The notes: generated by a model not told the origin, from the letters alone. DNA of 64,000 bases from Methylophilaceae bacterium (GCA_041612255.1 JBFJJN010000009.1:33640-97639), one strand, 5' to 3'; shown: positions 1 through 29,844, counted from the first letter of the stretch. Made by a program: numbers and translations.

Positions 1-374
1 ATAATAAACACGACAAGACCCACAGCATAATTGCCACCAATTAAGAAGTGACCAAAAGCTTCAATCACTTTACCTGCGGCAGCAGGACCAGTATGACCTT
101 CTGTTAACACCACGCGAGTAGAGGCAACGTTGAGTGATAAACGGAGCATGGTGGTAACTAATAGCACGGTCGGGAATGCAATAAAGTCGAGCGCTCTTTT
201 AGTTTGTAAGCCAATGAGCAAGACTAATATGGATAAAGCAATATTGAAGCTAAAAAAAACATCTAAAGCGATAGCTGGTAATGGCAATATCATCATGGAT
301 AGCAACATGATGATAATGATTGGCCCAGCTAGTGCACGACCATTGGAGCCACTTAGCCATGTGAAGTTATTCAT
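1..374 (-). CDS. flhA: Flagellar export gate protein FlhA, N-terminal part (gene continues beyond the left edge)
   Basis: Not listed in the ORF track. My own minus-strand translation from the ATG at 374-372 gives MNNFTWLSGSNGRALAGPIIIIMLLSMMILPLPAIALDVFFSFNIALSILVLLIGLQTKRALDFIAFPTVLLVTTMLRLSLNVASTRVVLTEGHTGPAAAGKVIEAFGHFLIGGNYAVGLVVFII. This matches the conserved FlhA N-terminus. ATGA start/stop overlap with flhB. Confidence 0.85.
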   Translation of the reverse strand, partial: MNNFTWLSGSNGRALAGPIIIIMLLSMMILPLPAIALDVFFSFNIALSILVLLIGLQTKRALDFIAFPTVLLVTTMLRLSLNVASTRVVLTEGHTGPAAAGKVIEAFGHFLIGGNYAVGLVVFI

Positions 375-20193: not shown

Positions 20194-21771
20194 TTAATTT
20201 TTTCTGATAGCCAATACCGCTTGATTGCGTAATGTCTTGAGTAAACTGAGGCTTTTAGATTTTTCATCAAAGCCATTAGTGGTTTGCATGTCGGCATAAA
20301 AGCAGCCAACCGCTTTTTTATTAATCATGACTGGCAGTAGTAAAAAGCTTTTTGCAGTGGATATTTTTTTGTACCAATCAGGAATTTTAGATGAAATTGG
20401 ATTGGCTTGTGTGTCAACAATCACAATATCAATGCCTTTGTCGACGGAAAGATGAAAAACATCTGGCGCATAATCCAGAGGAAATTTAAAAGCGGGCAAT
20501 ACGGCTTGTATATCACTACCATAGCCAGAGCGTGCCTGCATCATATTAGTTTTGCCGTCACGAATAAACAATAGTGCCCGATGGCAATGCAAACCGCGGT
20601 ACATGGTTTCTAAGATGATTTGCATAACCTCATTCACATTATATTCACCCACAAGAGAGTCAATGACATCTTGGATACCTGCTTGCAAAATACTTTCACC
20701 GTCTATTTTTTCATCCGCTGTGGTCGATTCATTTGCTTTTTCAGGTGGCGGACTTTTAGTTAACGTGCTATCGGTTGTCTCTTCAGCTTCACTGTTTGCA
20801 TCAATCGGCTTTTCCTGTTTTTTAGTCGGAAGCGTTTCATTGGTATAGTCAGCCACACGTTTCAACCAAACTGTCTTTTTAGAAACTAAATTAAGTATAT
20901 TGGCGTGCGTAGCGATTTCGGTTAACCCTTGATCTAACGCCTTTTGTAACATTGAGGCATCAATACGAATGGATTTTTTATATTTATTAACCAAATCCTG
21001 AGTTGTTTTATATTTTTCTGCCACACTGGTATTTGCAGCAACAGTCGTTAATTCAACTGCTAAATTCGTCGTTATTCTCAGTTGGTCGATATCGTTTTTC
21101 ACCTCTATTACTTTATCGTTAGTAAAAGCTTGCATGCCGTGAATTAAACGATCAGGCAATTGCCAACTTTTAGCAACTGCAACACCGAATGCATCGTAAG
21201 AAACGCCAAGCACTTTTTGAGACGCTTTAGTTTCAGACATGCCGCTATTTATTAATGCATTGACTTGCTGACACTCATCATAAAAGTAAAAGAGTGACAA
21301 CAGGCGACCTAGGTGATGAAAAATGCCACAAATCATAGCCTCTTCATAATTACGTGCTTGTAAGTTAATCGTTAATTGACGGGCGATAAGGCCAATAAAA
21401 TAAGTCGAAAGTACTTGGTCGCCTATTTGTTCAGCTTGCGATTTGTTTTGGATGAAATTAAGTAGCACCAGAGTGGTTGCGATATTCCTGACAACATCAA
21501 AACCGAGAATGACAACGGCTTTGGAAATGGTACTAATCCTGCCTCCAAACTGACCATAAGAAACGGTGTTGACCACTTTTAACAAATTATTAGTCAGCGA
21601 AAAATCTTCTAATATCGTATTGGTTAAGTGTTGAATAGACGAGGTGTCAGAGCTCACCACGTTGTTAATTTGAATAATAGTGGTCGATAGCGCAGGAAAA
21701 TCAGCACTATTTTGCAAGTATTGCAAACGGGATTCTAAATCCGTCAAATTGTGTATCTCTTCATCAGGCAT
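20194..21771 (-). CDS. HDOD domain - GAF domain signalling protein
   Basis: 525 aa. N-terminal HDOD signature (FPALSTTIIQIN...ILEDFSLTNNLLKVVNTVSYG...ISKAVVILGFDVVRNI...GIFHHLG), an acidic Ser/Thr-rich linker, and a C-terminal GAF-like fold. Confidence 0.7.
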   Translation of the reverse strand: MPDEEIHNLTDLESRLQYLQNSADFPALSTTIIQINNVVSSDTSSIQHLTNTILEDFSLTNNLLKVVNTVSYGQFGGRISTISKAVVILGFDVVRNIATTLVLLNFIQNKSQAEQIGDQVLSTYFIGLIARQLTINLQARNYEEAMICGIFHHLGRLLSLFYFYDECQQVNALINSGMSETKASQKVLGVSYDAFGVAVAKSWQLPDRLIHGMQAFTNDKVIEVKNDIDQLRITTNLAVELTTVAANTSVAEKYKTTQDLVNKYKKSIRIDASMLQKALDQGLTEIATHANILNLVSKKTVWLKRVADYTNETLPTKKQEKPIDANSEAEETTDSTLTKSPPPEKANESTTADEKIDGESILQAGIQDVIDSLVGEYNVNEVMQIILETMYRGLHCHRALLFIRDGKTNMMQARSGYGSDIQAVLPAFKFPLDYAPDVFHLSVDKGIDIVIVDTQANPISSKIPDWYKKISTAKSFLLLPVMINKKAVGCFYADMQTTNGFDEKSKSLSLLKTLRNQAVLAIRKN

Positions 21772-22101
21772 TGTTGTCGGCTTATTCTTATTATGTATAG
21801 CAGACAGTATGAATCAGCAGACCTATGAGATATCGAATAATTAGGCGCAATAAAAGACCTTAGTTTAGATTTAATACACGATTTGATTTCAGTTTTAGAT
21901 GACTCATCGTTTAATTTGCTTAACTAAGCGGTCTAATCATCATACGATTTCATGGTAATCGTTGTAAGTATCCGCCTACATTAAAATCAGAATATGGCGC
22001 GCATTCCTCACTTTTGTAATTGGGTACTATTCTATTGTGTTTCAGACTGTTGTAGTATCTGAATGCAAATCATCTATTAACGTAACTGAGAGGAAATAAA
22101 A

Positions 22102-22311
22102 ATGAACGCAAAAAAAACATCACTATTTATTATTCTATTAACACTGGCACTTGGCTTAGCGGCTTGTAGTCAAGATGGACCTGCAGAAAATGCGGGCGAA
22201 AAAATTGACAATGCGGCAGAAGATTTAGGGGATTCAATGGAAGATGCAACTGATGATGCAGGTGATGCGCTAGAAGAAGCTGGCGATGCAGTGGAAGATG
22301 CTACTAACTAA
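22102..22311 (+). CDS. Small acidic lipoprotein (hypothetical)
   Basis: 69 aa with a signal peptide and lipobox LGLAAC. The mature part is acidic repeats (AEDLGDSMEDATDDAGDALEEAGDAVEDATN). AGAGGA RBS upstream and a terminator downstream. Confidence 0.6.
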   Translation: MNAKKTSLFIILLTLALGLAACSQDGPAENAGEKIDNAAEDLGDSMEDATDDAGDALEEAGDAVEDATN

Positions 22312-22344: not shown

Positions 22345-22383
22345 CAAAAAAGCAGCGCTTAGTCAGTAAGCGCTGCTTTTTTA
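22345..22383. terminator. Bidirectional rho-independent terminator
   Basis: A-run, stem agcagcgctt / aagcgctgct with a 7-nt loop, then a T-run. Lies between convergent genes. Confidence 0.8.
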
Positions 22384-22414: not shown

Positions 22415-22792
22415 TTAAGCTCTTTTTGCTTCATTTTCAATGGTAAGAATCGCTTCTTCAAACTGCATGGATTTGTCAAAAAAGTATTGAATGCCAAAGT
22501 TTTTAGCCAACTGTTTATAATAAGCATTGTCATGATTAGTGAGCATTACTGCTGTGGGCGCTTTGTAGAGATAGTCAGGTTGTTGTGTATGTTTAACGAC
22601 TTCAAAGCCATTGCCTTTGGCCAGCTCAATATCAACAATCATCATATCGAATTGTTTTTTATCGAGTAAATCAATCGCATCTTGCTGTGTTTCAGCAAAC
22701 TCTTCTACGAAAATATTCTCGCAACCACTTAACATTTCCTTTATTGATTCGCGCAATATAGGCGAATCCTCTACTAATAACACTTGCATCAT
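22415..22792 (-). CDS. Stand-alone response-regulator receiver protein
   Basis: 125-aa REC fold (LLVEDSP...MMIVDIEL). No output domain. Confidence 0.75.
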   Translation of the reverse strand: MMQVLLVEDSPILRESIKEMLSGCENIFVEEFAETQQDAIDLLDKKQFDMMIVDIELAKGNGFEVVKHTQQPDYLYKAPTAVMLTNHDNAYYKQLAKNFGIQYFFDKSMQFEEAILTIENEAKRA

Positions 22793-22879
22793 ATTTATCT
22801 CATTTCAATATCAACCGCACATTAACTTTACCTCATCATTTTGTCTGTCAGGCTAATTCCTACAAAACAGCCTTCATGG

Positions 22880-23512
22880 TTAATCTAATAGCGCATGTTT
22901 AATAGCATAGTAAGTTAAGTCAGCGTTGGTTTTTAAACACATTTTTTCCATTATTCTGGACCGATAAGTACTAACAGTTTTAATACTTATATTCAGTTGT
23001 TCAGCAATTTCTGTTGGACTAAGACCGCTAGCAAGTTTAAAAAACACTTGAAACTCACGTTCAGAAAGCATTTCATGTAGCTGTTTGTCGGACGGGTGAC
23101 TTAGTTCGTTTGTCATTAGCTCTGCTAATTCAGCAGAGATGTATTTTTTGCCAGAGGCAATTTTTTTGATGGCTTTGATGATTTCATCAGACTCTGCATT
23201 TTTGGATAAATAGCCATGACAGCCGCTACGCATTAAGTTAAGTGCATATTGCTCTTCAGCATAACCACTTAATACCAAAACGGGTAGATCGGGCGCAATG
23301 TGCTTTAAATCATGCAAAGTATCAATGCCATTTTTATCTGGCATTGATATATCTAAGACAACCACATCGTAGGTGTTATTACGGATAAGTGATAAGGCCT
23401 CAGTTCCCGAGGCCGCCTCGCCAGCAACTTCAATGTCGCTTTCAAGATTAATTAAATTCTTTAGACCGTCACGTACAATTTTATGGTCATCTACTAGCAA
23501 TATTTTTTTCAT
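22880..23512 (-). CDS. NarL/LuxR-family response regulator
   Basis: 210 aa. REC (ILLVDDH...VVVLDISMPDKNG...LVLSG) plus a LuxR-type HTH (LSEREFQVFKLASGLSPTEIAEQLNISIKTVSTYRSRIMEK). Confidence 0.9.
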   Translation of the reverse strand: MKKILLVDDHKIVRDGLKNLINLESDIEVAGEAASGTEALSLIRNNTYDVVVLDISMPDKNGIDTLHDLKHIAPDLPVLVLSGYAEEQYALNLMRSGCHGYLSKNAESDEIIKAIKKIASGKKYISAELAELMTNELSHPSDKQLHEMLSEREFQVFFKLASGLSPTEIAEQLNISIKTVSTYRSRIMEKMCLKTNADLTYYAIKHALLD

Positions 23513-23567
23513 TGAAGCATTCTATCTAATGTATTGCGTGATTATATAAGAAGTCATTCTTCTCGAT

Positions 23568-24005
23568 TTATTTATCAGCGCTTTCATCAGCACCGTGTCT
23601 AAAAGCATGCCAATCGTGCGCAATCAATCTTGTTGACTCATCTGCAAATGGTTTGTTTTTCCATTGTTTTGTGGTTCTGATCAATAACACAGCTGAAATA
23701 ATTAACGGTAATAAAATTAATGCAGCGAGTATTAGTTCGCGATTGGGCTGTTCAGCGATAGCTGAAAACAGCCAGAATAGTGCAATAAGGCCACTAAAAA
23801 CAGCCGCGAAAAAAATACCTAAATAAATAAAGAAACTGTTCACCGCCCTTTGTAAATCGGACTGCAAAGTATACTTAATAAATATAGCTCGGCTTTCTAC
23901 ATAGTCGGCAGCACTCTCTTTGATATTACCCAAAGAGCTTGTTTTGCTAGAGATGCGATTATTAAGATAGTAAAGCACTAAATATTTAAGTATTTTTGCA
24001 AACAT
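23568..24005 (-). CDS. YqjE-like (phage-holin-family/DUF1469-type) membrane protein
   Basis: 145 aa. An amphipathic N-terminus, two TM helices and a charged tail resemble E. coli YqjE, and it sits directly after a YqjD-like gene. Assigned from memory of the family, not a search. Confidence 0.45.
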   Translation of the reverse strand: MFAKILKYLVLYYLNNRISSKTSSLGNIKESAADYVESRAIFIKYTLQSDLQRAVNSFFIYLGIFFAAVFSGLIALFWLFSAIAEQPNRELILAALILLPLIISAVLLIRTTKQWKNKPFADESTRLIAHDWHAFRHGADESADK

Positions 24006-24083
24006 GGTGAACAGTCTCCCTTATCATTATTATGAGTTAATTTATTTTGGCTTTGTTTGATTAAGGCCTAGCTTAATTACAGC

Positions 24084-24500
24084 TTAGTTTGATGATTGCT
24101 TAGATCCTAAGATGTAGCCAAGCAATAAGCCTGTACCAGCTGCCAGCGCTAACGTGCCTACTGGATGATTCTTAACTGATTCAACCGCACGTTCTTTACC
24201 AACACCGTAAGCATGACTGATTTCATCGCCCACTACCTGTTTAAGTGCTGTTGCTCGTTCTAAAATTTGCTCTTTCATGTTGTTTCCTTTCGTTGTGTTT
24301 GCATGGTTATTAATTAAATCCCTAAGGCCGTTAATGAGTGCTTCTGCCTTGTCTTCTGTTTGATTTGCTGTTTTATCAACTACACTATTAGCTTTGTTAG
24401 CAGATGATTTTAATTCGCGAGAAGCTTTGTTCAGGCCGCTTTTAGCTTCTTCAGCAAGCGTATTAGTTGTTTCTTGAATTGTGTCTTTAGTGTTTAGCAT
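24084..24500 (-). CDS. ElaB/YqjD/DUF883-family membrane-anchored stress protein
   Basis: 138 aa. Hydrophilic helical body with a C-terminal anchor NHPVGTLALAAGTGLLLGYILGSK, matching the family pattern ENPW.G.G.GAA.G..LG.LL. Confidence 0.62.
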   Translation of the reverse strand: MLNTKDTIQETTNTLAEEAKSGLNKASRELKSSANKANSVVDKTANQTEDKAEALINGLRDLINNHANTTKGNNMKEQILERATALKQVVGDEISHAYGVGKERAVESVKNHPVGTLALAAGTGLLLGYILGSKQSSN

Positions 24501-24561
24501 GGTTAGCTCCTTTTTAGGTTAGTTAAAAGTTTCTGTAAAAATCATTTAGTTTTTAAACCAT

Positions 24562-24717
24562 TTACTTTCTAGATTTTAAGAAAGAAATAATGGTGAGTAT
24601 TAAAAATACAAAAAAAAGTATTTTTGCAATACCGGCTGAACCTGCTGCTATTCCGCCGAAGCCAAGTGCAGCAGCAATTAACGCAATAACAAAAAATACA
24701 ACGGTGTAATATAGCAT
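24562..24717 (-). CDS. UPF0391/DUF1328 small membrane protein (YtjA-like)
   Basis: Below the ORF-track size cut-off, so translated by me: [51 protein letters not shown] (51 aa). The [10 protein letters not shown] core is the hallmark of the family. Confidence 0.7.
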
Positions 24718-24946
24718 TCGGTTTCCCCTTACTTGTTTATGAATATTTTTATTCGATGAAGCAATTGTAGCTAGTGAAGGGTTAAAGATAAGTAAGGCAT
24801 TCCTTATTTAAATGTAAGATAATACTTACACCGCTTGATTCAGGTATCAGCGGCAACTCTTAATATAGCTTTTGTTATTAAAGAGGATAATCACTTTTGG
24901 TAACAACAATACAACAACTTATTTGAGTGAAGGATCTAGTTTCAAC

Positions 24947-26368
24947 ATGCGAGATTTTTTTGATAAGCTCGACGCTGCGTTTGAGCGTATTTCATTGCGG
25001 TTTGGAAGTAAAAACATCTTATTGCTAGCCATGGCTTTGTTGGTTGCCATGTTAACTATCATTGTGAGTGACTACTGGATTAATAAAATTCAGAAGCAAA
25101 ATGCGCAAATATTGATCCTTAGAACCAATATTATTGAAGTGAATCAATTGAAAGAAAATGTGTTTAGGGCAGAAAGTGCGCAACGTGCCTACTTGATTAC
25201 AATGGATGAGAGTTTCGCATTGCCGTTTGACTATGCAATTGATAGTGCGAGAAAAAATATCGATGCGGTACAAACGAGCATTAGTCATGTGCTCAGTGGC
25301 GATGTGCAAATGAAAGCACTCGATGTCGTTCGAGATATGTCATCCTCATTAGAAGCTAAAACGGCAGAAATGACATTAACACTCAATTTGGCTAAAAATG
25401 GAAAGTTAAAAGAAGCGCAATCAATTGTTAAATTGGGTGATGGGCTGGATGAAGCGGAAAAGCTGGTAGCACTCAGCGAAGGATTTATTAACACCGAAGC
25501 ACAATTGGTCACTATTCTTGAAAAAAGTCGAAAACAGACCATCTTATACACGCGAATTGCCATTGTCTTTGGCTCAATTATTCTTATCTCTCTGGTTGTC
25601 TTGGTCATTAGTCAGCAATTAAAGGAGTTGTCTATTCGTGGTGAACTGCATGACAAGTTGACGGCTGAAAATGAGCGATATGAAAATGAAATTAAAAAGC
25701 AAAGAAAACTTTTATATTCGATGGCGCTTGACCACCAAACGGATGCTGAGCGAGAAAGGCAAAAGCTAGCCAGAGAGTTACATGATGAACTTGGGTCTAT
25801 TTTGACAGCGGCAAAAATGGATATTGCATGGACCATGAAAAAAGTCAGTGAACAATTTCCTGATGTGGCAGATAAACTCAAAAAGACGAATAAATATTTA
25901 GACCAAGGTATCGAGTTTAAAAGACAAATGGTGCAAGATCTTCATCCGTCTATGATTGCATCATTCGGATTTTGGCCTGCCATTCAAAACTTTATTCAAG
26001 AGGCTGCTGCCAGAAATCAATGGAAGCTCAACCTTGAATTACCTAGTGGCGAGCCACAGCTGAATGAAACTATTAGTTTGATTGCCTATCGCGTTATACA
26101 AGAAAGTTTAAATAATGCGAGCAAGTATGCAAAGGCGACCAATGTGTCTGTATATCTAATGCAGGATGAAAAATATTTAAAAATTGAAATTGTTGATGAT
26201 GGAGTGGGCGCGGATTTAGAGTCGGTTGGTGAAACTACGCATGGACTTTCTGGTATGCGCCATCGCGTATTGGCAATTGGCGGACATTTTGATATTGCCA
26301 GCAAATCTGGTCATGGTATGTCTACGCAGGCGCTGCTGCCATTAGATATTAGTAAGTATGATTATTAG
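24947..26368 (+). CDS. CHASE3-domain sensor histidine kinase (HisKA_3/NarX-type)
   Basis: TM helix, CHASE3-like periplasmic region (RAESAQRAYLITMDESF), second TM helix, coiled coil, H-box ARELHDELGS and HATPase_c (N, G1, G2 boxes). The track ORF opens at TTG 24872. ATG 24947 after AAGGA is preferred. Divergent from the regulator operon. Confidence 0.85.
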   Translation: MRDFFDKLDAAFERISLRFGSKNILLLAMALLVAMLTIIVSDYWINKIQKQNAQILILRTNIIEVNQLKENVFRAESAQRAYLITMDESFALPFDYAIDSARKNIDAVQTSISHVLSGDVQMKALDVVRDMSSSLEAKTAEMTLTLNLAKNGKLKEAQSIVKLGDGLDEAEKLVALSEGFINTEAQLVTILEKSRKQTILYTRIAIVFGSIILISLVVLVISQQLKELSIRGELHDKLTAENERYENEIKKQRKLLYSMALDHQTDAERERQKLARELHDELGSILTAAKMDIAWTMKKVSEQFPDVADKLKKTNKYLDQGIEFKRQMVQDLHPSMIASFGFWPAIQNFIQEAAARNQWKLNLELPSGEPQLNETISLIAYRVIQESLNNASKYAKATNVSVYLMQDEKYLKIEIVDDGVGADLESVGETTHGLSGMRHRVLAIGGHFDIASKSGHGMSTQALLPLDISKYDY

Positions 26369-26518
26369 CTTTCATGATTGCTAGTATTGTCAGCATCTTC
26401 TGACAAAAGAATCAGCAGAAATATGACTTTAACCTCACCGTAATTTTCCTATGATGTGTTTCATCAAAGCAAGACAGAAACGCTTACTTTGTTACTTATA
26501 TCAATTTAGGAGAATTAC

Positions 26519-27031
26519 ATGAAACAGTTAAAACAAAATTCAGCAGTAGTCGTTGCTTGCATCATCGCAATTGGATCAACCAGTGCAATGGCGTTTGATA
26601 CCGATAACGTTAAAAATGAACAGACACCTTTAGCGAGTGAGTTTGTGAGTCTTGATGTTTCTGCAAACGGTGAATTAACTGCAAAAGAAGCGTCTACCGA
26701 TAAACTATTTACTTACAACCATTTTGTTAAGGCGGATGTGGATAAAAATGGCACGCTTAATCAAAATGAGTATGTCACTTATAAATCAGCACAGCAGCAA
26801 AAAACAGTTGCGCGCGTCATTGATGACAGCGTGATTACAACTAAAGCGAAAGCAGAGTTACTCGCAGAGAAAGATCTAAAAAGCGTGCAAATTAGTGTGG
26901 AAACACACAAAGGTAACGTTATCTTAAGTGGTTTTGTCGACAATTTGGCAACAAAGAAAAAAGCGGAGCAGGTTGTTGCCAAAATCGAAGGCGTAAAATC
27001 AGTTAAAAATGGTTTAGTTGTTAAAGGCTAA
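26519..27031 (+). CDS. Periplasmic EF-hand pair + BON domain protein
   Basis: 170 aa. Signal peptide (..STSAMA), two canonical EF-hand loops DVSANGELTAKE and DVDKNGTLNQNE, and a C-terminal BON domain (VQISVETHKGNVILSGFVDNLATKKKAEQVVAKIEGVKSVKNGLVV). Confidence 0.75.
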   Translation: MKQLKQNSAVVVACIIAIGSTSAMAFDTDNVKNEQTPLASEFVSLDVSANGELTAKEASTDKLFTYNHFVKADVDKNGTLNQNEYVTYKSAQQQKTVARVIDDSVITTKAKAELLAEKDLKSVQISVETHKGNVILSGFVDNLATKKKAEQVVAKIEGVKSVKNGLVVKG

Positions 27032-27068
27032 ACTATGCTTCACCTCTAAAGTTTTACTTAAAGTTTAA

Positions 27069-27102
27069 AGCCATATGCACAAAAATGCGTATGGCTTTTT
27101 TT
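27069..27102 (+). terminator. Rho-independent terminator
   Basis: agccatatgc / gcgtatggct stem followed by T7. Confidence 0.75.
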
Positions 27103-27221
27103 ATTATTTACATACTTTGTAATCTTATTCTTACAACAATATCAGCGAACCACCGACTATTTAGATTGCATCAATTGCGTAGAATAGCAATTGTAGGTTC
27201 AATTCAGATTATTAAGAGGGA

Positions 27222-27710
27222 ATGAAAATCATGAAAAGCTATTTAATTAATTTAACAATATTAGCAGCAGCAATGGGTGTCAGTGCTTCATACGTATCAG
27301 CAGAGGGAGAAACATATTCTAACGACTGGCAGAGTCCAATCGTTAAAGAGTTTAATCAATTAGATACTTCTGGTAATGGTTTGCTTTTACGCAATGAAGC
27401 GTCGAAAAATAAGGCTTTTACTAGTAAAACGTTTGATCAAGCTGATCTTAACAAAGACAATTATATCGATGTTGATGAGTACATTTATTTTAAAACAGGT
27501 AGTCGTCCAACTATCCAAGATAAAATTAATCCAACAGTTCAAAATCAAGTTGAGCCGATGCAAGTAGAGCCAATGACGGAAGAACAAGTTGAGCCTACAA
27601 TGGAAGATCAGGTTGTGCCAATGATGGAAGATGTAATGGAAATGGATAACGATAGCGTTTCTATGTTATATGATGGTAGTGAAAGACCTCAAAAGAAACT
27701 CTATATTTAA
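27222..27710 (+). CDS. Periplasmic EF-hand pair protein with a Met/Glu/Pro-rich repeat tail
   Basis: 162 aa. Signal peptide, EF loops DTSGNGLLLRNE and DLNKDNYIDVDE. The N-domain is paralogous to 26519..27031. Tail is VEPMQVEPMTEEQVEPTMEDQVVPMMEDVMEMD. The start could be ATG 27231. Confidence 0.7.
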   Translation: MKIMKSYLINLTILAAAMGVSASYVSAEGETYSNDWQSPIVKEFNQLDTSGNGLLLRNEASKNKAFTSKTFDQADLNKDNYIDVDEYIYFKTGSRPTIQDKINPTVQNQVEPMQVEPMTEEQVEPTMEDQVVPMMEDVMEMDNDSVSMLYDGSERPQKKLYI

Positions 27711-28234: not shown

Positions 28235-29629
28235 ATGCTGCCAATCATCACCTATTTAGATTTAGAAACCACAGGCGCAACGCCTTTAAGAGATCGGATC
28301 ACTGAAATTGCCCTAGTGCGATTTGAAGGCGGTATTGAAGTGGCGCGTTGGCAAACATTAGTGAATCCTGAAACCTCTATCCCACCGTTCATCCAGCAAT
28401 TAACAGGTATCTCCAATGACATGGTGCAAGAAGCGCCTACTTTTGCACAAGTTGCAGATAAGTTAGCTGCATTTTTAGAAGGTTCTGTCATGGCTGCACA
28501 TAATGTGCGATTTGATCATGGCTTTTTAAAAAGCGAATATAGACGACTCGGTCAAACTTTACGACAGCGCGTTCTATGCACAGTGAAATTATCACGTAAG
28601 CTTTACCCAGAACACAGAGGCCATGGTTTAGACGCAATCATGCATCGACATCAGTTAACCACTGAAATGCGGCATCGTGCCATGGGCGATGTTGAGTTGA
28701 TGATTGGATTTGTTAAGTCAGCTCAGAATGAATTAGGCAATGAATATGTTGCTGAAGCGGCCAAAGAGCTTTCTAAAAAGCCAAGTTTACCAGCCAATAT
28801 TGATAGTCATTTAGTCGATGATATCCCCGATACGCCAGGGGTTTATTTCTTCTATGGTGAGAATGATTTACCGCTTTATATTGGCAAAAGTGTTAAGTTA
28901 CGCGATCGAATTATGTCTCATTTTAGTGGGGATCATGCCTCTTCCAAAGAAATGCGAATATCACAAGAAATTAAACGCATAGACTGGATTGAAACCGCAG
29001 GAGAATTAGGCGCTTTATTACTTGAGTCAAAGCTAGTCAAAGAACGTCAGCCTATCCATAACAGACAACTAAGACGAGAGCGACAGCTTTGTACTTGGCA
29101 AATAGCCGATAATCCTGAAGAGATGCCGCAAGTAAAGCTGATAAGTGCAGCTGAAATAGAAACTAATATGCTAGGCAGGCTATTTGGTACATTCAGATCA
29201 AAAAGTAAAGCAATAGAAGCGCTACGTGACCTTGCAGAAGTACACCAGCTATGTCCAAAAGCACTAGGGTTAGAAGCTGGGAAAGGGCGCTGTTTTGCTT
29301 CGCAGTTGCATAAATGTAAAGGTGTTTGTGAGGGCAAAGAACCTAAAGCAATCCATCATCTAAGATTGCTGCAAGCACTATCAGCTCATAAACTCAAAGC
29401 ATGGCCTTATCAAGGTAAGATAGCCATAAGAGAAGTGTGCGAATTAACGGGTAGAACAGCGATGCATATTTTTGATCAGTGGTGTCATCTCACCACTGTA
29501 GACAATGAAAATGATTATGCGGAAGCGTTAAATGATAAGACTATTTTTGCATTCGACCATGACACGTATAAGCTACTTTTGAAGGCGATAAATAGTAACA
29601 AACATCATTTAATAGAAATAAATGCTTAG
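28235..29629 (+). CDS. DnaQ-like 3'-5' exonuclease fused to a GIY-YIG (Cho/UvrC-N-like) nuclease
   Basis: 464 aa. DEDDh exonuclease motifs (YLDLETTG, AHNVRFD, HRAMGDV) then GIY-YIG (GVYFFYGENDLPLYIGKSVKLRDRIMSH...E) and a UvrC-like Cys-containing segment. Confidence 0.8.
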   Translation: MLPIITYLDLETTGATPLRDRITEIALVRFEGGIEVARWQTLVNPETSIPPFIQQLTGISNDMVQEAPTFAQVADKLAAFLEGSVMAAHNVRFDHGFLKSEYRRLGQTLRQRVLCTVKLSRKLYPEHRGHGLDAIMHRHQLTTEMRHRAMGDVELMIGFVKSAQNELGNEYVAEAAKELSKKPSLPANIDSHLVDDIPDTPGVYFFYGENDLPLYIGKSVKLRDRIMSHFSGDHASSKEMRISQEIKRIDWIETAGELGALLLESKLVKERQPIHNRQLRRERQLCTWQIADNPEEMPQVKLISAAEIETNMLGRLFGTFRSKSKAIEALRDLAEVHQLCPKALGLEAGKGRCFASQLHKCKGVCEGKEPKAIHHLRLLQALSAHKLKAWPYQGKIAIREVCELTGRTAMHIFDQWCHLTTVDNENDYAEALNDKTIFAFDHDTYKLLLKAINSNKHHLIEINA

Positions 29630-29767: not shown

Positions 29768-29844
29768 TGGTACGCCCGAAGAGATTCGAACTCCTGACCC
29801 CTTGGTTCGTAGCCAAGTACTCTATCCAGCTGAGCTACGGGCGC
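29768..29844 (-). tRNA. tRNA-Arg (anticodon ACG)
   Basis: Reverse complement: gcgcccgtagctcagctggatagagtacttggctACGaaccaaggggtcaggagttcgaatctcttcgggcgtacca. It folds as a cloverleaf, is near-identical in its D and anticodon arms to E. coli tRNA-Arg(ACG), and encodes the CCA. Confidence 0.93.

Follow-up and report, generated by a model that had tools for sequence, protein, structure and literature searches.

For three decades, the VsrA/VsrD (VsrAD) two-component system has been investigated as a virulence regulator of Ralstonia, in which it controls exopolysaccharide (EPS), motility, secondary metabolites and acyl-homoserine lactone (AHL) production, and acts with PhcA on xpsR. It is also needed there for cold tolerance, H2O2 tolerance and biofilm formation (PMC11960443), and the signals that it senses are still called unknown in reviews (PMC13532016). 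Here we describe a locus of a Methylophilaceae bacterium in which a sensor kinase, a response regulator and a receiver-only protein are surrounded by genes for small membrane proteins and for secreted proteins with EF hands. The locus lies in a 64-kb stretch of DNA (GCA_041612255.1, JBFJJN010000009.1:33640-97639), hereafter the window. We consider it probable that it represents the Methylophilaceae version of a betaproteobacterial VsrA/VsrD-type system together with a small adjacent regulon, the whole forming an autoregulated envelope or general-stress module. New here are the relationship to VsrA/VsrD, a DNA box shared by the module's promoters in a fixed layout, a lipoprotein gene as a further member, and the EF-hand-BON protein as a Methylophilaceae-specific addition.

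Kinship with VsrA/VsrD

The regulator aligns with R. solanacearum VsrD (Q45416) over 210 of 210 residues without a gap, at 56% identity and 79% positives. The kinase aligns with the Ralstonia kinase adjoining vsrD at 30% identity over 458 amino acids (aa), from the first transmembrane (TM) segment to the ATPase domain; the Ralstonia enzyme has the same CHASE3, HisKA_3 and HATPase_c build, and the phospho-accepting histidine of the window kinase lies within 2 residues of the published H258. On the strength of these two alignments, we assign the system to the VsrA/VsrD family, and the receiver-only gene that adjoins the regulator in both supports common descent. The original prediction, a description of the locus made from its sequence, was aware of no characterised system of this kind; VsrA/VsrD is the studied relative that it had overlooked. 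The two nevertheless differ in setting. Thus, in Ralstonia the kinase gene is convergent with those of the receiver and regulator, whereas in the window it is divergent, and a regulator of virulence, EPS and motility there contrasts with a free-living, non-pathogenic methylotroph as the host here.

Open reading frames (ORFs) were called in the window, and Pfam and NCBIfam scores were computed on its proteins. All eight genes of the original prediction were found as ORFs where it had placed them, and its outline of the module needed extending to the left, to a box-driven lipoprotein gene. Genes and terminators are listed below, with + and - for the forward and reverse strands.

22102-22311, +: lipoprotein gene; 69 aa, acidic, lipobox LAAC; outside the range first proposed
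22346-22383, both strands: bidirectional intrinsic terminator between the lipoprotein and receiver genes; -23.4 and -25.2 kcal/mol, z -7.3 and -8.4
22415-22792, -: receiver-only response regulator; 125 aa, Response_reg 63.2 bits
22880-23512, -: VsrD-like NarL/LuxR-family response regulator; 210 aa, Response_reg and GerE
23568-24005, -: YqjE-like two-TM membrane protein; 145 aa, PF07332 26.9 bits
24084-24500, -: ElaB/YqjD-like tail-anchored protein; 138 aa, long amphipathic N-terminal part, DUF883_C only
24562-24717, -: DUF1328 (YtjA-like) membrane protein; 51 aa, first gene of the five-gene operon
24947-26368, +: VsrA-like sensor kinase; 473 aa, TM, periplasmic CHASE3, TM, HisKA_3, HATPase_c
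26519-27031, +: secreted EF-hand pair and BON protein; 170 aa, BON 66.8 bits
27067-27098, +: intrinsic terminator after the EF-hand/BON gene; -18.1 kcal/mol, z -5.6
27222-27710, +: secreted EF-hand pair protein without a BON domain; 162 aa, repetitive Q/V/E/P/M-rich tail, EF-hand_5 30.5 bits
27754-27792, +: intrinsic terminator closing the module; -22.3 kcal/mol, z -7.7

The terminators proposed after both EF-hand genes were recovered by a terminator scan and by folding. The hairpin at 22346-22383, a perfect 10-bp GC-rich stem flanked by runs of A and T, is by folding the strongest terminator of the region and is not listed by the consensus terminator scan.

All three kinase domains score above their Pfam cut-offs (CHASE3 52.5 bits, HisKA_3 40.5 and HATPase_c 36.4). 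The CHASE3 domain (PF05227, cut-off 28) spans residues 87-215 between the two TM segments and keeps the conserved motif AESAQRGYL; as a sensor it belongs to a narrow family, with 30 representatives at E<=1e-10 among 1.84 billion. The ATG start of the kinase is backed by alignment. The extra receiver beside the regulator, to which the original prediction had drawn attention, retains every phospho-acceptor residue: E8, D9, D54, T85 and K107 do not vary among 67 orthologues, and from this invariance we take the lone receiver to be a working phospho-acceptor.

Two further described systems invite comparison. The first is GacS/GacA (BarA/UvrY). UvrY/SirA/GacA is the best NCBIfam family for the regulator (NF007018, 180.1 bits, below the cut-off of 280), identity to Escherichia coli UvrY is 35% with similar recognition helices, the helix KTVSTYRxR is invariant in the regulator orthologues, and the site predicted below equals the GacA box. 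The kinase, however, consists of CHASE3, HisKA_3 and HATPase_c only and is not of the unorthodox HisKA-REC-Hpt type, and the boxes front protein-coding genes at a fixed distance instead of Csr/Rsm (CsrA/RsmA-sequestering) small RNAs. A true GacA orthologue working through small RNAs was accordingly rejected, given the wrong kinase type, the score under the cut-off, and the lack of a match to any Rfam family in the window. The second is LiaFSR/VraSR of the Firmicutes, in which a HisKA_3 kinase is likewise paired with a NarL-family regulator in operons that regulate themselves and switch on small proteins associated with the membrane. Among solved structures, VraR matches the regulator best; the LiaS score is 82 bits against a cut-off of 450, and sensor domain, phylum and effector families all differ, so that the likeness is a functional analogy only.

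The shared palindrome and its promoter layout

Dyads and k-mers were enumerated in intergenic DNA from about 75 loci, none identical to another, and one dominant 18-bp palindrome emerged, TGT(A/C)AG-N6-CT(G/T)ACA. With at most one mismatch it occurs four times in the window against 0.57 expected, a number reached in none of 100 shuffles, and all four copies sit upstream of transcription units of the module. The intergenic regions proposed earlier as targets of the regulator do, indeed, carry a shared palindromic site. The boxes, listed without strand, and two of the promoter elements that we predict from them are as follows.

21963-21980: box 1, TGTAAGTATCCGCCTACA, one mismatch; directed towards the lipoprotein gene, with AATCAG at +22 and TACTAT at +62..67
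22025-22030, +: predicted -10 hexamer TACTAT of the lipoprotein promoter, at a position that fits the anchored profile
24813-24830: box 2, TGTAAGATAATACTTACA, exact match to the GacA/UvrY box; on the DUF1328-operon side
24765-24770, -: predicted -10 hexamer TACAAT of the DUF1328-operon promoter, at +61..66 from box 2, as in the profile
26388-26405: box 3, TGTCAGCATCTTCTGACA; upstream of the EF-hand/BON gene
27118-27135: box 4, TGTAATCTTATTCTTACA, one mismatch; upstream of the second EF-hand gene, with TATCAG at +22, GACT at +37 and TAGAAT at +62..67

When promoters are aligned on the box, a fixed layout appears in 51 EF-gene and 62 DUF1328-operon promoters: the box at 0-17, AaTCAG at 22-27, GACT at 37-40 and a -10 hexamer TAnnAT (TAa.AT) at 62-67. 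All four promoters of the window fit it. A degenerate second copy of the box, AGTAAGGCATTCCTTATT, lies at 24791-24808 on the DUF1328 side, 22 bp from box 2, where it overlaps the conserved proximal element; it may be the site of a second regulator dimer. Methylotenera loci with long divergent regions hold two DUF1328 paralogues, each with its own box, as in the Methylotenera-like locus L009 (6365-6523 and 6657-6830); such tandem paralogues recur in many Methylotenera and Paraburkholderia loci (also L002, L170-L172 and L169).

The palindrome is the consensus of the GacA/UvrY box, published as TGTAAGN6CTTACA (PMC3171408, PMC8523701), exactly so at 24813-24830 and within one mismatch of the degenerate form at the other three sites. 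This raises the question of whether another regulator binds it, or whether it is a conserved element unrelated to the two-component system of the window. GacA-type boxes are recognised by several NarL-family regulators, and we pair the regulator with the site from sequence only. Yet the site co-occurs with a VsrD-like regulator in genomes from 40% to 65% GC, it fronts the regulator's own operon, and its sequence agrees with the consensus for the curated family closest to the regulator; we therefore regard either possibility as very improbable.

Over all loci together, the cassettes hold 140 sites in 466 kb and the flanks 4 in 634 kb, a density about 48-fold higher in the cassettes. Two of the four flank sites front the lipoprotein gene; in locus L056, a box outside the cassette, about 3.7 kb upstream of the kinase gene, fronts a 77-aa glycine-zipper lipoprotein (Rick_17kDa_Anti family, OsmB-like). 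These densities bear on a second alternative, namely that the regulator is a pleiotropic global one, as the range of functions under VsrAD control in Ralstonia would suggest, and that the adjacent stress genes are a small incidental part of a large regulon. Conservation across Methylophilaceae is much higher for the regulator (76-95% identity) than for the kinase (41-82%), as expected of a protein constrained by many targets, and our box scans covered the window and the loci. Against this, the box density in the flanks, 0.006 per kb, is not above the chance rate of about 0.009 per kb from window shuffles, and the cargo genes accompany the system across families. We consider this alternative unlikely as the leading explanation, although it is compatible with a stress module and the two are not mutually exclusive.

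Conservation of the cassette and the proposed circuit

Homologues of the window kinase number in the thousands, and sampling each species by a single genome gave 545 relatives. An exact-sequence look-up of the window kinase gave no match. The best 80 of the 545 are all labelled Methylophilaceae (Methylotenera, Methylophilus, Methylobacillus, Methylovorus and Methyloradius) or carry unspecific or apparently mis-binned labels of metagenome-assembled genomes (MAGs). By tblastn with the window proteins, the receiver, regulator, kinase and EF-hand/BON genes were present in essentially all of the 80 loci with enough flanking sequence; gene calls with Pfam labels gave the same order on metagenome and MAG contigs, and an independent start from homologues of the EF-hand-BON protein led to the same cassette in three of three places. 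The linkage is far beyond chance, and the cassette is conserved across Methylotenera, Methylophilus, Methylobacillus and Methylovorus. The original prediction had envisaged a gene set gathered around a dedicated two-component system and had suggested looking for co-occurrence across genomes; the set proves to be a conserved unit whose linkage is kept across Methylophilaceae loci.

The closest relative of the kinase, at 82% identity, comes from a Methylophilaceae MAG (L007), in which the neighbouring HDOD gene and the lipoprotein gene with its box are also kept. Elsewhere the cargo differs by clade. Thus, Methylophilus lacks DUF1328, and no YqjE-like or ElaB-like genes were detected by tblastn in the Methylobacillus/Methylovorus clade, though an ElaB-like ORF is visible in Methylobacillus flagellatus. 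In Methylobacillus (L066 8415-9113, minus strand; also L057, L062, L063 and L067) the kinase and EF-hand-BON genes are separated by the insertion of a gene for a DUF2490 protein (180 bits), which has a signal peptide; the inserted gene lies beside a box. In M. flagellatus KT the regulator has two protein accessions, ABE49213 and ABE49357, 144 apart, for which reason the cassette appears to occur twice in that genome, probably within a large duplication. A MAG labelled Acidovorax caeni (L085, CALRJH020000006.1) carries a cassette indistinguishable from those of Methylophilus (kinase 42% identical, same order), and its label is probably a binning or labelling error.

Distant kinases, followed in metagenomes, led to high-GC Burkholderiales, and cluster look-ups of these loci returned Cupriavidus, Ralstonia, Pandoraea, Ottowia and Paraburkholderia, the Ralstonia cluster including VsrD itself (Q45416). 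The sample comprised 22 high-GC loci, each flanked on either side by 3.5 kb or more, 285 kb altogether. A VsrD-like regulator and an adjoining receiver-only gene are present in all 22, and DUF1328 in 16 of 22; a box lies within 600 bp of DUF1328 in 12 of the 22 loci, and 12 of the 14 boxes in the 285 kb adjoin DUF1328. The combination of regulator, lone receiver, DUF1328 and box recurs in Cupriavidus, Paraburkholderia and Pandoraea. The Cupriavidus promoter (65% GC) has the same layout, with box TGTAGGACTTGGCTGACA, AATCGG at +22 and TACGAT at +62..67; downstream lie DUF1328 and then a protein matching the DUF883 N- and C-terminal models (N-domain 27.5 bits against 25.4, the C-terminal model just under its cut-off). 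The cargo of the Paraburkholderia phymatum locus includes a Dps-like ferritin and an entericidin-like lipoprotein, and that of other related loci CsbD, a dual-BON lipoprotein and an acidic lipoprotein.

Starting from the observed gene content, its conserved linkage, the conserved site with its promoter layout and the VsrA/VsrD homology, we propose the following circuit. The kinase, through its periplasmic CHASE3 domain, would sense an extracytoplasmic or envelope condition and phosphorylate the VsrD-like regulator. The phosphorylated regulator would bind the 18-bp palindrome, whose midpoint lies some 56 bp upstream of that of the -10 hexamer, and probably also the weaker conserved element (AATCAG ... 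GACT) that reaches into the -35 region. Binding would activate four units, namely the operon from DUF1328 to the receiver, the EF-hand/BON gene, the second EF-hand gene and the lipoprotein gene. Since the regulator gene lies inside the activated five-gene operon, positive autoregulation would follow. The co-transcribed lone receiver would most likely compete for kinase phosphate, as a sink or brake induced with the response. The output would likely be envelope protection under osmotic, ionic or starvation stress, to which the EF-hand/BON proteins, a Methylophilaceae-specific addition, would add a Ca2+-dependent periplasmic function. The nature of the stimulus is suggested by the kinds of cargo and by the phenotypes of vsrAD mutants in Ralstonia, which are sensitive to cold and H2O2 and defective in biofilm formation.

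Several points weigh against this proposal. First, part of the family departs from this wiring: at the P. phymatum locus no box was found with up to 2 mismatches allowed, the site there seeming to have drifted, and the Ralstonia locus that we examined has neither DUF1328 nor box nor EF-hand/BON genes. Second, a conserved layout was looked for on the kinase side of the divergent region and none was found there. Third, the full regulon may reach well beyond the cassette, the box scan having covered the window and the cassette loci with their flanks. Fourth, that the regulator binds the box, that it activates, and what the receiver does are inferred from conservation, and the stimulus from the cargo and the Ralstonia mutants. 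Fifth, the stress theme draws on the annotation of E. coli homologues, and DUF1328, DUF883 and YqjE proteins lack an established biochemical function. Finally, as to novelty, no defined VsrAD DNA site or conserved direct target was found in the literature searched, which did not extend to the early VsrD (xpsR) papers, so that a site mapped earlier is possible.

Other searches of the literature were similarly empty. In those that we ran, nothing was found on the cassette, on the EF-hand-BON protein, or on DUF1328 or DUF883 as targets of a VsrAD-type system; nor on the pairings DUF1328 with DUF883, CHASE3 with EF-hand, and Methylophilaceae with BON; and those on EF hands in Methylophil* and on two-component systems and calcium in Methylotenera held nothing on the module. 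For the VsrAD family, three things can be drawn from the locus and those related to it: a candidate site of 18 bp in a constant promoter arrangement, a predicted set of direct targets that is conserved (DUF1328, ElaB/YqjD-like and YqjE-like proteins), and a partner receiver that is likewise conserved. Their main use would be as a route to the signal and the direct targets of the family, and they point to the genes that it originally controls. The widespread and functionally obscure DUF1328, DUF883 and YqjE-type proteins, in turn, are given a predicted regulator of their own and a genetically tractable setting in methylotrophs that can be cultured.

The cargo proteins and neighbouring genes

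The family calls of the original prediction for DUF1328, CHASE3/HisKA_3, BON and the EF hands stand, while those for the two larger membrane proteins need qualification. DUF1328 is clear (PF07043 56.1 bits against a cut-off of 27; NF010226 77.6 against 59). The 145-aa protein is borderline on PF07332 (the YqjE family, former DUF1469; 26.9 bits, under the cut-off of 28.4), for which E. coli YqjE scores 75.8 bits, and the assignment holds in its orthologues, 15 of 16 of which match the family (best E 4e-9); a direct hhalign comparison of its profile with E. coli YqjE is weak (probability 41%). For the 138-aa protein, the DUF883 assignment is probable, as judged from its matches, only for the C-terminal membrane anchor. 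Thus, DUF883_C (PF19029) scores 16.6 bits against a cut-off of 27 (E 0.006), its glycine-zipper anchor is matched by 16 of 19 orthologues (best E 6.6e-9), and hhalign with E. coli YqjD gives a probability of 93% and E 3e-7 over the C-terminal 42 residues only. The DUF883 N-domain (PF05957) gave no match in the 138-aa protein and one at E<0.01 among the 19 orthologues.

With YqjD and YqjE of E. coli checked directly in this way, the membership of the effectors in the scattered RpoS-type stress families of E. coli, as had been proposed, is upheld. The families shared with E. coli yqjD-yqjE, elaB, ytjA and osmY are DUF1328, BON and, probably, PF07332 and the DUF883 C-terminal anchor, and, as in the E. 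coli yqjCDEK cluster, the YqjD-like gene adjoins the YqjE-like one. In E. coli, however, these genes are scattered and lie away from a two-component system, whereas those of the window share one site and layout; moreover, the 138-aa protein is without the DUF883 N-domain, and in the BON protein an EF pair replaces the second BON domain.

The BON domain of the EF-hand-BON protein scores 66.8 bits on PF04972 (cut-off 27). The protein falls short of the OsmY equivalog model, with 64.5 bits where the cut-off is 174. In a Foldseek search with the predicted model, the BON domain matches OsmY (8rjx) at E 4.3e-7, with a root-mean-square deviation of 1.0 over 69 columns and 43% identity, followed by DolP, Kbp and BonA, and the EF pair matches calmodulin lobes. 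The model, in which the EF pair is joined to the BON domain, has a mean predicted local distance difference test score (pLDDT) of 75, with 88-92 over the EF pair. On Pfam the EF hands score under the cut-off in the BON protein and over it in the second protein. In both EF loops of 74 orthologues, D occupies position 1 in 74 of 74 and E position 12 in 73 of 74, with D, N or S at positions 3 and 5; judged by these residues, the two 12-residue loops are of the canonical Ca2+ type. Kbp (YgaU) of E. coli, a BON-LysM protein, similarly joins BON to an ion-responsive function, but it resides in the cytoplasm, its ligand is K+ and it lacks EF hands, whereas the window protein is secreted and has the EF pair. 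As far as our literature searches show, the secreted EF-hand-BON fusion appears to be undescribed, and it suggests a calcium-dependent variant of the OsmY/DolP-type envelope proteins.

The two EF-hand proteins were correctly described as paralogues; they are 40% identical over the EF pair (E 1e-12). The second protein ends in a 24-nt tandem repeat in three copies (27561-27632), at a place taken in relatives (L002, L170 and L172; forms of 233-308 aa) by a single BON domain or by two, and its BON part seems to have been replaced in the lineage of the window. In Methylotenera, a gene for a Blc-type lipocalin lies directly 3' of the EF-hand-BON genes (L002 11368-11946, L170 6585-7154 and L172 6588-7157); E. 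coli Blc is a stationary-phase and osmotic outer-membrane lipoprotein.

A third alternative places the EF-hand proteins at the core, in periplasmic calcium or lanthanide sensing and buffering tied to methylotrophy, with the membrane proteins as accessories. A lanthanide link was suspected because the host is a methylotroph, and methanol dehydrogenases that use pyrroloquinoline quinone (PQQ) require Ca2+ or Ln3+. The EF-hand/BON family appears confined to the methylotrophic Methylophilaceae, the ligand positions of its loops are strongly conserved, and there are weak matches to the lanmodulin model. Those matches, however, reach only 25.9 and 13 bits, with the cut-off at 135, the proteins have two EF hands, and loop position 2 is T/K/V or V/K/I and not proline, on which grounds we rejected lanmodulin-like proteins; in addition, the core in other families (regulator, receiver, DUF1328 and box) is entirely without EF-hand proteins. 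Mfla_0816/0817 of M. flagellatus, a La3+-responsive pair (PMC9988556), was considered as the cassette of that species and rejected as a different system: the regulator and kinase of the M. flagellatus cassette have two genes between them, and the KT regulator accessions ABE49213 and ABE49357 correspond to a gene index above about 940, as estimated from the likely start of the KT accession series. Overall, we judge this alternative quite improbable, more so than that of a global regulator. The labels "calcium" and "dormancy", which the original prediction attached to the module, are inferred.

Beyond the envelope-stress module that we favour for the window, a broader hypothesis can be formulated for the family, which we offer as speculative and rather doubtful. 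The ancestral job of VsrA/VsrD would be envelope, osmotic or dormancy stress, not virulence, with DUF1328 as the invariant direct target, usually alongside an ElaB/YqjD-like partner; in Methylophilaceae, secreted EF-hand-BON proteins would have been recruited as Ca2+-binding components that feed back on the periplasmic CHASE3 domain. Such feedback would render the kinase responsive to periplasmic divalent-cation status, much as CpxP acts on CpxA.

Around the module, the 69-aa lipoprotein has only weak Entericidin and Ala-zipper lipoprotein matches in Pfam and NCBIfam. To its left, and divergent from it, a 525-aa HDOD and GAF signalling protein is encoded at 20194-21771 on the minus strand; of the relatives, L007, the closest, is the only one in which it adjoins the cassette (89%), and the box layout faces away from it. 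To the right, a 464-aa ORF at 28235-29629 on the plus strand follows the module, with an N-terminus that by eye resembles a DnaQ-type exonuclease; it is not conserved beside the cassette elsewhere. Beyond it lies a tRNA-Arg(ACG) gene at 29768-29844 on the minus strand.

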